Part shown: positions 944 to 64,000 of the stretch, in pieces | Numbering within the stretch: the first letter of the stretch is position 1 | Layout of the letters: every line of letters starts with the position of its first letter | From: an uncultured Gemmatimonadaceae bacterium | GTDB lineage: Bacteria; Gemmatimonadota; Gemmatimonadetes; Gemmatimonadales; Gemmatimonadaceae | Length of the DNA: 64,000 bases | Reading direction: 5' to 3' | Assembly (NCBI GenBank): GCA_963817955.1 | Contig: CAWFQK010000002.1 | Location: 1,056,001-1,120,000 of the forward strand | Notes under the pieces: model-generated | The model's input: only the letters and a program-made list of their open reading frames with translations | What the model was told of the DNA's origin: nothing | The model's database searches: none | Translations under genes and position numbers: made by a program

Positions 944-3400
944 CTACGGCATCCCAAACGGATCCCCCGGAGGCGCAACGAGCGACGGCGAGAACTTGGG
1001 TAGTTCGCGCTTGTCGATCCACCGCGTGAAATCGTTCGAGATCGACAGCCAGTGCGCGCGCTCGTCGTCGCCGCGTGCCGCCGTCTGGCGACTGCGCGCC
1101 TTGGAGCGGAGGTCGGCAATCTTGAGCTCAGCCATCGCACGCACCTCGGCCGCGGCGTCGTTGTCGGCGGCGAGCATCAGCAGCTTGTCGGCCACGGTGC
1201 GCTGGGTGACGCGCTGCAGCGCCGCGAGCTTGGGGGACGGCTGAGCCGGTGCACCCCACGTTGCACCAACGAGAGCGTCGATCGTGCCGCCGAGCGTGAG
1301 GTGTGGCCCGGCACCGCGGTTGCCGAATTCCACCAGCCGGGCAGCTCGATCGCGCTGCAGAATCATGTCGACGATCATCTGCGACAACGTCTGCGCGGCA
1401 CCCAGTTCGTCGAACGCCGGCCGAGTGCGACTCTGGAACAATTCCACGGTCGGCGTCACGGCGTTCGCCCCTGGTGCCATGAGTGTCAACACGGTATCCG
1501 GAATGGCCAGCTCATCCGGACTCAACGCGCTGACCATCAAGTGCAGCGCGTCCATTTGCTGCTTATAGGCGACGGGCCGCGTTGCCTGCTGCGCGTCGCC
1601 ACTGACGGCGTTGGTGTACTCCATCCCGCCTATGGCCTTCGACGTGCCATTCAAAGCGAAGCGATGCATGAAGTAGACAGGGGCAAATCGTTCCTGCAAC
1701 AGCGTGATCGGATCGCCGGGTCTGATGTTGCGCAGCCCGAAGTCGCGCATGGCGACGCGACGTACTGCGGTTTGACTTCTGAGGAAGTCGAGCGGCGTGG
1801 CGTCGTCGTCCCACAGGTTCACGCGCGGGTCGGAGCCGTACTCGGGGCGCGCATCGGCGTCCGAGAGATAGACATAGCCCTTCTTGAGGCCGTCGGCGAC
1901 AATGGCGCGCAGCGAGTCGCGCTCGCTCGAGACCGGAAAGATGCCATAGCCCCAGTGAATGGCCCAAACGTCGTACGGGCCCGGTCCAACCGCGTACGCC
2001 TGCTGGATGTCGATGCGCCCGTTCGCGTCGAGTCGCACGCGCGGCGGCGGGTAGTCCATCACCGAACCGCGCTCGTAGGTCGACGCGATGTAGTTGTGCG
2101 ACAGACCGAGCGTGTGCCCCGTTTCGTGCGCGCTCACCTGGCGCACGCGGGCGAGCACGAACGCCGTGTCGGCCGCAGAGGCGGCGGCGCCCATCAGCCC
2201 GGCGTAGAGATTGTAGTCGGTACGCGCACGATGGGAGTCGAGCCGGGCCATGCCCTTGATCATCTCGCCGGTACGCGGATCGGTGAGCGCACCACCAACC
2301 GACCACCCGCGCTCGTTACGGTTCTCCCACTGTACGACGTTGTACCGGGCGTCCATGGGATCTACCCCTTCGGGGAGCAGTTCGGCCTTGAATCCCCCCG
2401 TGAGACCCGCGCGGTCAAACGCCTGCTCCCACCACTTCACGCCGGCAAGCGTCGCCGAGCGCATCGGTTCGGGAATACCACGGTCGACGTAATAGCGGAT
2501 CGGTTCCTTGATTGGCGATTTGGGATCATTCGGGTCGACGCGTTCCAGGCGATGCCGTGACGCGAGGCGAATCTGTAGCGGGTCTTGAATCGGCTGCGCG
2601 TAGTCCTTGTACGAAACGCCAAAGTAGCCGACGCGCGGGTCGATCGCGCGCGTATGGAAGTTGGCGTCCGGGAGCTTGAGAAAACTCAGGTGCTGTCGCA
2701 GCGTGAACGCTCGGCCATCCGGGACGATCGATGCCACGATGCCGCCTGGGCGCGCTGTCGTGGCATAGGTGAGGGCGACGTCGATTTCCGTGTTATCCGG
2801 AAAGGCTTTGGTGTACGGCCGGTAGATCGTCGAACGGTCGCGCGCCACCGCGTACGTCCCCTGCTGGCTTCGCGTCAGCGTTCCCACGACATCGTTCCAG
2901 TCGCGCATCGCGACGTCGGTCGCATCGACGAGCAGGCGTCCGCCCTCGTCGGCCAGGAGCGGCATGGCCGCCACGGTGCTTGGCGGGAAGGCCTCGGCAA
3001 CGGTACGCAAGTGATCCGCGCTTCCCGACGTGCTGCGATATGCCCAGTTCTCGAGCACGAGGAGCACCCGGTCGCCGTCGCGGTCGAAGCGGGCCACCTG
3101 GGTCTCGCCGCTGGAACCCCGATCGATGCCAATGGGATTCGAACCCAAACCGGTTGCTTGGGTAATGAGCAGGAGGGCACGCGTCGAGTCCCGCGGGATC
3201 TCGATGAGGATGCGCCCTGACCTCGGGTCGAGGTAAATTGGAAGAAACCCGTCTCGGCGCTCCATGCCCGCCGTCCGCGCGGCAATCGACGTTGAGAGTG
3301 GCGCTGTTGTTGCTTGAGCGAGGACAGCCGCGGGACAGGCGAAGAGGATGATCGACGCGAGCGCCAGCGGCGCTCGCCGTGGGCGGGGAGCAGGTTTCAT
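944..3400 (-). CDS. Secreted zinc-dependent metalloprotease (DUF5117/DUF4953 metzincin-like)
   Basis: Signal peptide ending AVLA-Q; HETGHTLGLSH zinc motif; SVMDY Met-turn; 'DPRVGYF' and 'DPRTGE' motifs. Confidence 0.88.
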   Translation of the reverse strand: MKPAPRPRRAPLALASIILFACPAAVLAQATTAPLSTSIAARTAGMERRDGFLPIYLDPRSGRILIEIPRDSTRALLLITQATGLGSNPIGIDRGSSGETQVARFDRDGDRVLLVLENWAYRSTSGSADHLRTVAEAFPPSTVAAMPLLADEGGRLLVDATDVAMRDWNDVVGTLTRSQQGTYAVARDRSTIYRPYTKAFPDNTEIDVALTYATTARPGGIVASIVPDGRAFTLRQHLSFLKLPDANFHTRAIDPRVGYFGVSYKDYAQPIQDPLQIRLASRHRLERVDPNDPKSPIKEPIRYYVDRGIPEPMRSATLAGVKWWEQAFDRAGLTGGFKAELLPEGVDPMDARYNVVQWENRNERGWSVGGALTDPRTGEMIKGMARLDSHRARTDYNLYAGLMGAAASAADTAFVLARVRQVSAHETGHTLGLSHNYIASTYERGSVMDYPPPRVRLDANGRIDIQQAYAVGPGPYDVWAIHWGYGIFPVSSERDSLRAIVADGLKKGYVYLSDADARPEYGSDPRVNLWDDDATPLDFLRSQTAVRRVAMRDFGLRNIRPGDPITLLQERFAPVYFMHRFALNGTSKAIGGMEYTNAVSGDAQQATRPVAYKQQMDALHLMVSALSPDELAIPDTVLTLMAPGANAVTPTVELFQSRTRPAFDELGAAQTLSQMIVDMILQRDRAARLVEFGNRGAGPHLTLGGTIDALVGATWGAPAQPSPKLAALQRVTQRTVADKLLMLAADNDAAAEVRAMAELKIADLRSKARSRQTAARGDDERAHWLSISNDFTRWIDKRELPKFSPSLVAPPGDPFGMP

Positions 3401-13497: not shown

Positions 13498-13820
13498 ACG
13501 GCGCAACAGCTTTTGAACGCAGAGGACACAGAGAACTGCAAGAGGTCGCAGAGAACTGCAGGAGAACTGCTGAGAACTGCAAAAGAAAACTGCAAGCGTA
13601 CGGAAGAGGGAGGCGCGTATTGGTGGAATGAACCGTGATTGCCGAGTCCACAATCATTCCGCCTATGTCGTTAATGACCACGACCTGGCGATACCCTCGG
13701 AGCGTCACGACGGCATCAAACAAGACATCCAGGCGAGACCATCCTTCACGGTCCTCCGCAGTTCTCCTGCAGTTCTCCTGCAGTTCTCTGCGACCTCTGC
13801 GTTAAATGCTGTTGCGCCGT
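13498..13820. repeat. Large inverted-repeat (MITE/REP-like) element built from AGAGAACTGC-type units
   Basis: 13498-13510 acggcgcaacagc is the reverse complement of 13808-13820. 13541-13570 is the exact 30-bp reverse complement of 13769-13798. The arms contain 10-11 bp gagaactgc subrepeats. Confidence 0.9.
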
Positions 13821-62808: not shown

Positions 62809-62870
62809 CGCAGACGGCGCAACAGCCATTTAACGCAGAGAACTGCAAGAGAACGCAGAGAACTGCAGAG
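62809..62870. repeat. Further copy of the AGAGAACTGC repeat arm, ending at the IS110 boundary
   Basis: 62809-62826 is identical to 13493-13510 (cgcagacggcgcaacagc). It continues catttaacgcagag and gagaactgca units. Confidence 0.9.
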
Positions 62871-64000
62871 CTATCTGAGGTTATCCGTCAAGGGGAAAAG
62901 GACGTCATGCAGTCGCGGGGACGAGGTGCGCGGTGAGGGGTGAGCCGCGGTGTTCGAGCGCGCGGACATAGCGCGCGTCGTCATACGGGATGCTGTCGTG
63001 CCAGCAGCGCCAGAGAATCCGGATCCATTTGAACGCGAGCGTGCGAATGGCGGCGTGATGCGACTTGCCGCGTTGTCGTTGCAGGTGATAGAACGCGCGC
63101 GCCCAGGGGACGTGCGGTAGCGAGTACTGTGCGAACTCATGAAAGGTCTGGCGAAGAAACTTCGAGGTCGCCCAGCGCCAGTGCACCACGCAGCTCTTGC
63201 CGCTGCGCACGGTAATCGGGGCGATCCCTGCGGTTTGCTGCACGTCCGCCGCTGAGGGGTAGCGCGTGCGGTCCGAGCCAAACGCGACCAGGAGCCGCGG
63301 TGCGAAGGCCGCGCCGGCGCCCGGCACTGACTGAAAGATCACTGCATCGGGATGGGCGGCGAACGCCGCGGCGATCCGCTTCTCGAGCGCGACCAGACTC
63401 GGGTGCAGGGCCAGCAACTGGCGGGCGAGCATCTGCGCATGGAGGGCATGGGACTCGATGATGGCCGGGTCGCGCGTCAACGGGGTGGCCGTGGCGATTG
63501 CCTCCAGGCGCGCCGTGATGCCCGACTGGCTGCGGCAATTGTGCGCCGTGTAGAACGTCCGCACCGTCGCGGGGCGCGCGCGCTGCAGGGCTTCCAGCGT
63601 GGGCCACCGCTCCAGAAAGTCGCAGGCCAGGGGCGCACTGAGGTCGGTGCCGGCCACGGTGAGGGCGAGGGGGAAATAGGCCTTGAGCACGGCCTGCAAC
63701 TGCTGCGTGAGCCGGGTCCGCATGTCCACGAGCGTGCGCCGGATCTGCACGAGGTAGTTGAGCGAGCGCGTGGCGGCATCCTCCGGCATCCAGGGGTGCA
63801 ACTGGGCCTGATGGTGCGTCAGCAAGGCGAGCAGGAGCCGCGCATCCGGCACGTCGTCCTTGGCGCCGTTGGGGGAGAACACTTGGCGGAAGCGGCACAG
63901 GCTGCGCGGATTGACGGGATAGAGCACGAGGAACGGCGCCTCGAGGAGCGCGTGGACAATCGGGCCCCGCGAGGTCTCCAGGGCGATGCCGATCGGTTGG
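62871..64000 (-). mobile_element. IS110 family insertion sequence: right end and most of the transposase; left end outside the window
   Basis: Transposase ORF, then 34 bp of non-coding end containing TTGACG, then an abrupt switch to the repeat. The boundary is inferred. Confidence 0.85.
62905..63999 (-). CDS. IS110 family DEDD transposase/recombinase, 5'-truncated
   Basis: Frame open to the window edge: IALETSRG (E), YPVNP, AKDDVPDA (DD), SVPGAG, GIAPITVRSGK (Tnp serine), GKSHHAAIRTLAFKW. Confidence 0.95.
   Translation of the reverse strand, partial: QPIGIALETSRGPIVHALLEAPFLVLYPVNPRSLCRFRQVFSPNGAKDDVPDARLLLALLTHHQAQLHPWMPEDAATRSLNYLVQIRRTLVDMRTRLTQQLQAVLKAYFPLALTVAGTDLSAPLACDFLERWPTLEALQRARPATVRTFYTAHNCRSQSGITARLEAIATATPLTRDPAIIESHALHAQMLARQLLALHPSLVALEKRIAAAFAAHPDAVIFQSVPGAGAAFAPRLLVAFGSDRTRYPSAADVQQTAGIAPITVRSGKSCVVHWRWATSKFLRQTFHEFAQYSLPHVPWARAFYHLQRQRGKSHHAAIRTLAFKWIRILWRCWHDSIPYDDARYVRALEHRGSPLTAHLVPATA

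Follow-up and report, generated by a model that had tools for sequence, protein, structure and literature searches.

A probable bridge-RNA-guided IS110-group insertion sequence within a dispersed repeat of a Gemmatimonadaceae genome

Our analysis identifies, at the end of a 64,000-nucleotide stretch of an uncultured Gemmatimonadaceae genome (the window, G000:C2:1056001-1120000), an insertion sequence of the IS110 group, here termed IS-A, that interrupts one copy of a dispersed repeat and that very probably moves by bridge-RNA-guided recombination; judging from sequence, we place the probability of this reading at about 0.9. The recombinase gene of the element runs past the end of the window, and all coordinates above 64000 given below are extrapolated, having been read from the same contig. 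The reading is carried by the observed boundaries of the element, its core dinucleotide, its protein family, the matches between guide segments and target, the covariation of guides with flanks among relatives, and another insertion found at the identical site; transcription, a circular intermediate and present-day activity of IS-A are the parts that we infer. A preliminary description of the window had proposed a bridge system that targets this repeat, and that interpretation holds with two qualifications, namely that the element is a member of an already described group and that this particular copy carries signs of impairment.

IS-A and the repeat that it interrupts

IS-A occupies 1680 bp of the minus strand (64550..62871) and is composed of a long non-coding left end (LE) of 347 nt at 64204-64550 (G000:C2:1120204-1120550; 2704-3050 of locus L001), which encodes the predicted bridge RNA, followed by the recombinase gene and a short right end (RE) of 34 nt at 62871..62904. 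There are no terminal inverted repeats, and the ends were set by empty sites: the span could be fixed because intact copies of the repeat read straight through the gap. In fifteen intact copies the sequence runs ...CACGGTC-CT-CTGCAGTTCTCTGCG..., small variants aside, and is uninterrupted at the insertion point; the occupied copy reads CACGGTC-CT-(ATCTTTAG...CAGATAG)-CT-CTGCAG, the parentheses enclosing the element. A single CT is thus present in empty sites and one CT stands at each junction of IS-A, and a longer target duplication is absent. With 15 intact copies spanning it, the match of the insertion point to the repeat is not a matter of chance.

Within the window, the right side of the element proved to be arranged exactly as first described. 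The transposase stop at 62905 is followed by 34 nt (62904-62871). These contain the outward-facing -35 box (TTGACG, 62891-62886), behind which 15 nt remain before CT at 62870-62869 and CTGCAGTTCTCTGCG. The terminus of this right end holds the left-donor segment CCTCAGATAG (62880-62871, minus strand), and the right arm of the interrupted repeat, which forms the right side of the target (RT), lies at 62809..62870 on the minus strand, where the CT core is followed by CTGCAG. The right flank had been assigned to the repeat family at 13.5-13.8 kb, and indeed many genome BLAST matches begin exactly at 62870, including C2:1069541-1069820. The latter corresponds to an unoccupied copy within the window (13541..13820, plus strand) that reads CACGGTC-CT-CCGCAG, one difference from the target of IS-A. 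On the far side, the expectation that the flank would resume the repeat and end in CT was borne out, as the interrupted repeat copy continues at 64551-64815 with its left arm and central core, a stretch that ends in CACGGTC plus CT (core 64552-64551). BLAST of the stretch 66200..62700 against the whole genome returned no second copy of IS-A, and the flanking DNA was multi-copy both at 64815..64539/64551 and at 62870..~62807.

The repeat itself is ~375 bp long and resembles a miniature inverted-repeat transposable element (MITE), with inverted ends of ~28 bp (CCTGTCATCCTGAGCGAAGCGAAGGATC), a central core of 165 nt, and arrays of CTGCAGTTCT-type units of 10-13 nt in opposite orientations. Its core yields 48 high-scoring segment pairs (HSPs) genome-wide, 38 of them at least 150 nt long, and the exact 15-nt target of IS-A stands unoccupied at 14 sites of the genome. 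IS-A sits off-centre in its copy, with 265 nt of repeat on one side and ~64 nt on the other. None of 80 other genomes sampled from the family, one of which belongs to the same genus, yielded the long form of the repeat; seven of them gave matches of 26-50 nt, to unit arrays only.

A fragment elsewhere in the genome bears on the choice of site. On the minus strand at C8:4667..4624, 44 nt of a left end of the IS-A type stand directly after the CACGGTC-CT of another repeat copy, a remnant that represents an independent second insertion at the same repeat position. The remnant begins with the canonical TATAG and, besides this different start, carries three substitutions relative to the left end of IS-A. 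It ends ...GCACGT and is then followed by CT-CTGCAG, where IS-A reads GCACGT-CT-TCCGCG; such a product would therefore result from a deletion that runs from the internal CT to the CT of the right junction. This shows that the identical position in the repeat has been used at least twice and that TATAG is the ancestral start. Two further sites, C2:827355 (GGTC-CT-TATAGTT-CT-CTGCAG) and C6:111433 (GGTC-CT-TGTAGTT-CT-CTTGCAG), might be taken for 7-nt footprints of left ends and were not counted, because TGTAG and TATAG variants of the repeat unit occur elsewhere too.

The protein places the element in the IS110 family. The part of the gene inside the window (62905..64000, minus strand) comprises the stop codon and the C-terminal 364 codons, and the protein that it encodes matches the Pfam domains PF01548 (E 1.7e-16) and PF02371 (E 1.3e-12). 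The start is an ATG at 64203, outside the window, which gives a full product of 432 aa (P0001) from an intact open reading frame without internal stops. This protein scores 151.7 bits against NCBIfam NF033542, 'IS110 family RNA-guided transposase', above the cut-off of 140, and contains both the N-terminal DEDD (RuvC-like) and the C-terminal Tnp domain of the IS110 group. The Tnp domain aligns with the transposase chains of IS621 (E 3.4e-7) and ISCro4 (E 5e-8) over a region that includes the ...SG.S segment. Among the 80 other sampled genomes of the family the protein was not found at E<=1e-40, which is not proof of absence, as metagenome-assembled genomes (MAGs) often come without their insertion sequences.

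A predicted bridge RNA and its covariation with flanking DNA

The preliminary description had placed a candidate bridge RNA beyond the window and expected its target loop to match the repeat. Both expectations agree with the content of the 347-nt left end, in which guide segments fit the two sides of the target CT. In IS621 the left target guide (LTG) pairs with the bottom strand and the right target guide (RTG) with the top strand, core included, according to the pairing rules given in PMC11208160. Read in this way, the candidate LTG of IS-A (LE 121-129, 64430-64422; RNA UACGGUCUU) can pair at all nine positions with the bottom strand of CACGGTC+CT, through seven identities and two U residues that wobble opposite bottom-strand G. 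The candidate RTG (LE 143-150, 64408-64401; RNA CUGCAGAG) is the reverse complement of CT+CTGCAG at 8/8 positions. The corresponding donor guides lie further along: the left donor guide (LDG; LE 188-196, 64363-64355; RNA CCUCAGAUA) matches the right end of the element, CCTCAGATA(G)+CT, at 9/9 positions, a single G separating the matched segment from the core, and the right donor guide (RDG; LE 269-275, 64282-64276; RNA CUAUAAG) is the reverse complement of CT+TATAG. The RDG therefore fits the start seen in relatives and in the C8 remnant, and does not match the start of IS-A itself, CT+ATCTTTAG. Shuffling the left end (n=20000) produced the RTG 8-mer in 137 cases and the LDG 9-mer in 19, and in no case the two at once. 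No Rfam bridge RNA family matched the left end of IS-A.

The relatives of the recombinase that we drew on were the 80 best of 105 matches in genomes and the 80 best of 228 in metagenomes. The homologues, at 42-78% protein identity, come from soil metagenomes and from MAGs labelled Gemmatimonadaceae, Acidobacteriota, Verrucomicrobiota and others (loci L002-L161; proteins P0002-P0120). Searching the 161 loci by nhmmer with a hidden Markov model (HMM) of the left ends of IS-A, L021, L037 and L002 gave 57 matches, of which the 15 left-end homologues above 70 bits were analysed and the 42 weaker ones left out. These 15 rows represent 13 distinct elements, as L141, L154 and L158 show one and the same element in different places; in L154 and L158 this relative occupies the same position in two separate copies of its own repeat. 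The close relatives share a right end of the form TTGAC[AG]...C[CT]TCAGAT[AG]G followed by CT, and 11 of the 12 other left-end starts recovered read TATAG, the exception being L037 (TACAG), where IS-A has ATCTTTAG. CT is seen at the junctions of the relatives too, with the same ends set in differing flanks.

Among these close relatives the RNA scaffold is constant and the guide columns vary with the flanks of each element. The RTG columns pair with the core plus 5 nt of the element's own right flank in 13/15 rows, L037 (5/7) and L084 (6/7) being the two that fall short, and at the five non-core positions identity is 4.8/5 with the own flank against 3.5/5 with other flanks (196 cross pairs). 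For the LTG, scored against the own left-flank segment plus core (LT7+core) with the better of two registers allowed for own and cross comparisons alike, the mean over the 12 rows that include a left flank is 8.4/9, against 6.3/9 in 128 cross pairs, and an extra base before the last LTG position gives the best fit in seven rows (L037, L084, L002, L104, L154, L158 and L083). That the cross comparisons score high is due to the clade as a whole targeting similar repeat arrays, of the CTC[TC]G[TC]G type. One of these relatives is also unusual at its right end, which at L083 1753-1800 carries a tandem duplication of the terminal ~24 nt, which doubles both the -35 box and the left-donor segment.

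The RNAalifold consensus of the 13 elements folds into two stem-loops with internal loops, the predicted scaffold spanning roughly LE 99-294. Stem-loop 1 combines an outer stem, which is long, with an inner one (UUCG...CGAA), and its internal loop presents the LTG and RTG; stem-loop 2 is built from the stems GCUUC-GG/CC-GAAGC and CGAA/UUCG, and the LDG and RDG lie in its internal loop. Counted over the scaffold pairs, 96% of cells are paired and 13 pairs show compensatory changes, a level reached in 0/500 shuffles, and in helix 2 the compensatory change affects both sides in 10/11 pairs. Because the sequences are related, the shuffle control overstates the significance, and the stronger evidence comes from the compensatory pairs together with controls in which the partner was slid along the sequence (no more than 42% paired). 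A third helix, in which RNAalifold paired LTG with RTG, was not accepted as scaffold and is taken as a by-product of targets that are direct repeats of one unit.

In the mechanism that we propose, the 432-aa DEDD/Tnp recombinase would bind an RNA of ~200 nt with two stem-loops that is made from the left end. The LTG would pair with the bottom strand of CACGGTC+CT and the RTG with the top strand of CT+CTGCAG, both within the target loop; of the donor-loop guides, the LDG would read the right end of the element and the RDG the left-end start that is canonical in the family, CT+TATAG. Through recombination at the CT core, IS-A would then enter one ~375-bp repeat copy, with CT left at both junctions, and circularisation would join the -35 box of the right end with a -10 box of the left end to form a promoter for the bridge RNA.

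Joining right and left ends in silico bears on this last step. Wherever both ends of a relative are available (12 rows), a TTGACA-like box is followed after 17 nt by a TATAGT-like box that begins directly after CT, with scores of 9-11/12 that measure consensus match only; the weaker boxes are GTGACA/TACAGT (L037), TTGGCA/TATAGA (L104) and TATAGA (L002). The IS-A junction reads TTGACG / 16 nt / TATCTT, the first T being supplied by the core, and scores 9/12 on the same consensus match. The predicted geometry, a -35 box and a 17-nt spacer with the -10 box at or just after the core, thus stands for the family (12/12 relatives' rows) and does not stand for IS-A, in which the spacing is 16 nt, shifted by one. 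A hybrid promoter leading from the -35 box of the right end into the downstream gene was considered and rejected by eye, as the CTGCAG that stands 17 nt after TTGACG is not a -10 box.

Condition of this copy and alternative explanations

Several observations weigh against a fully functional bridge system of the kind proposed here. IS-A is single-copy although 14 exact empty 15-nt targets exist, and its left end begins with ATCTTTAG in place of the TATAG found in 11/12 other starts and in the C8 remnant. As a consequence of this changed start, its own RDG pairs at the two core positions only or, alternatively, forms a bulged duplex of 6 bp at the inner CT, as worked out by hand from the sequences with no scripted score. 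The junction -10 box is weaker than those of the relatives, and the LTG pairing needs two wobbles. The minimum free energy (MFE) fold of the single IS-A sequence departs from the consensus architecture, which the fold of its closest relative, L084, does show. The donor loop of IS-A furthermore contains a tandem expansion (LE 224-255, 64327-64296), consisting of ~2.5 copies of a 13-nt unit (GACGACTGCGAGA) with further GACGAC starts, that is absent from L084. Among the relatives, mismatches between guides and flanks in L037 and L084 also count against the reading. The insertion at L037, with its mismatches and its TACAG start, may be off-target or decayed. This relative lies directly behind a tRNA-like T-arm sequence (GGTTCGATTCC...; L037 1180-1245). 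Taken together, these signs suggest that the IS-A copy may be weakened, though none of them is decisive.

The alternative with the best standing follows from these signs and holds that IS-A belongs to the class but that this copy is immobilised or strongly weakened, its left-end start having changed after insertion (TA -> ATCTT). We give this somewhat less than an even chance, and it is compatible with the bridge-guided reading because it concerns present activity and not the identity of the element. The change of start would break the RDG pairing and weaken the junction -10 box, and the tandem expansion may disturb the fold. The single copy in the presence of 14 perfect empty targets, the canonical TATAG of the remnant and of nearly all relatives, the promoter score of 9/12 at 16 nt against 9-11/12 at 17 nt, and the aberrant MFE fold all point this way. 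Against it stand the intact 432-aa reading frame and the intact LTG, RTG and LDG; moreover, the length of the donor loop varies among the relatives, and MFE folds of single sequences are unreliable. In IS621 the RDG is described as pairing discontiguously (PMC11208160), which suggests that a bulged pairing may be tolerated.

Contradicted by the observations, and very improbable, is an accidental association, in which an unguided element landed in the repeat and the short matches in its left end arose by chance. The repeat is abundant, with 48 core HSPs, so that random insertions would sometimes land there, and the guide matches are short (8-9 nt); however, both guide matches never occurred together in the 20000 shuffles, the guides occupy positions that covary with flanks across 13 elements, a second insertion occupies the identical nucleotide position in another repeat copy, and the L154/L158 relative likewise sits at one site in two copies of its own repeat. 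Equally improbable, and contradicted by the empty sites, is the notion that the repeat arms, which are mutually inverted around IS-A, are the terminal inverted repeats of a larger composite or MITE-parent element and no target, since dozens of recombinase-free repeat copies read through the insertion point, relatives with the same right and left ends have different flanks, and IS-A lies asymmetrically in the repeat (265 nt vs ~64 nt).

Of the sequencing runs listed, none is recorded as RNA; parts of the stretch were recovered from four metagenome runs of one study, with shares of 0.09-0.30. Some of the metagenome contigs are fragments that match parts of IS-A without a difference, and one contig joins L001 1368 to 3051, skipping 1682 nt, with a side of 31 nt; this join might be read as an excision from the IS-A locus and is taken instead as an unoccupied repeat copy. 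The circular, back-joined form was not found among these contigs, which cannot show rare forms.

Known bridge systems and a second IS110 element

IS621 targets a repeat, the repetitive extragenic palindromic (REP) sequence. IS-A differs in that it targets not the REP of E. coli but a MITE-like repeat of ~375 bp in a Gemmatimonadaceae-like genome, and in that it is known from sequence alone. To our knowledge, no bridge system from this phylum has been studied. The bridge RNA system of IS621 from Escherichia coli was described by Durrant et al. 2024 (PMC11208160), with structures 8wt6 and others, and, as far as that account goes, IS-A shares with it the DEDD and Tnp recombinase family, a long left and a short right end, a predicted two-loop RNA, a CT core that would enter all four guide pairings, an LTG directed at the bottom and an RTG at the top strand, and a predicted promoter rebuilt across the RE-LE junction. 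The differences lie in the protein, which has 432 aa against the 328-aa IS621 chain and matches it partially (whole-sequence E 3.4e-7, best stretch at query 261-412), and in the guides, the RTG having 7-8 nt (core plus 5-6) in the IS-A clade against 4 nt in IS621, and the LTG of some clade members having 10 nt, with one extra nucleotide. We conclude that IS-A probably works like IS621, the sequence-level features of the family having been found with the exception of the match between the RDG and the right donor (RD) in this copy.

ISPpu9 and ISPpu10 of Pseudomonas putida offer a second comparison, as these are described as inserting in repeated extragenic sequences, with many identical copies (PMC12288879; bioRxiv 10.64898/2026.03.19.712850). 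From these descriptions they resemble IS-A as repeat-inserting members of the IS110 family and differ in host phylum and repeat type, and also in copy number, with seven ISPpu9 copies reported against the single IS-A. A third comparison is with the uncharacterised environmental IS110 relatives described above (L002-L161), the 13 closest of which share the right end, the scaffold RNA and the CT core with IS-A; their targets are also short tandem repeat arrays of the CTC[TC]G[TC]G type, and their own guides follow their own flanks. Relative to these, the ATCTTTAG start and the tandem expansion are unique to IS-A.

Since repeat-targeting IS110 elements have already been described, IS-A is best regarded as a natural new example and not as a new kind of system. 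It adds a new natural triple of recombinase, bridge RNA and target, with a recombinase that is longer than that of IS621 and only distantly similar to it, and its clade uses right target guides of 7-8 nt and left target guides of 9-10 nt. The 13 elements, with different guides and known flanks, yield guide rules for the clade without recourse to experiment. For annotation, this reading would account for why a recombinase gene lies at a contig-scale repeat, and it would turn the 347 'intergenic' nt upstream of that gene into a predicted RNA gene.

The same repeat copy houses a second, unrelated IS110-family element, IS-B, which adjoins IS-A and spans 1237 bp of the minus strand (66052..64816; L001 3316-4552), with a left end of 243 nt, a 323-aa protein and a right end of 22 nt. 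Its protein scores 213.5 bits on NF033542 and shares 22% identity over 120 aa with that of IS-A. The insertion site, CTGTCATC-CT-GAGCGAAGCG, lies in the terminal inverted end of the repeat (CT then GAGCG), and the 14-mer around this CT occurs 131 times in the genome. By eye, the left end of IS-B contains a left target guide, UCAUCCU, and CGCUCAG, the reverse complement of CT+GAGCG, around a small hairpin, as well as ACAGUUG, which matches its own right end.

IS-B has also left a fragment elsewhere: 82 nt at C7:126283-126364 are 100% identical to its left junction and left-end start. This fragment ends at the CT of the guide-encoding TCATC-CT (the left target guide of IS-B), and the inverted repeat end GATGACAGG comes next. 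The left-end remnants of the IS-A type and of IS-B each stop exactly at an internal CT. Read jointly, these observations could mean that the ~375-bp repeat is a landing pad shared by two unrelated bridge systems at different CT sites and that the remnants arose by self-deletion, through guide-directed recombination at internal pseudo-sites, a reading that we consider rather unlikely as it stands. The proposed route to self-deletion is that a guide gene necessarily copies half its target, and recombination with half-matching substrates is reported in a preprint (10.64898/2026.08.31.748434). Two orthogonal systems on one repeat, with remnants at internal CTs, would provide a natural view of how safe sites are chosen and how elements decay.

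On the plus strand of the IS-B left end, antisense to the gene, L001 4359-4516 gives the only Rfam match obtained, a sub-threshold one to the family RF02234 (sX15), with 35.4 bits against a gathering score of 55 (E 0.0034). sX15, a small RNA (sRNA) of Xanthomonadaceae, and its complement asX7 are described as carried on plasmids, a Stenotrophomonas chromosome having 10 homologues (PMC3300014). That pattern would fit an IS110 left-end RNA that had been filed as an sRNA, though both the strand and the homology are uncertain. Altogether the genome holds five IS110-family genes, three of which are clustered within 15 kb on C4:1383251-1398526; these three score 169, 114 and 106 bits on NF033542, and none of them is flanked by the ~375-bp repeat.

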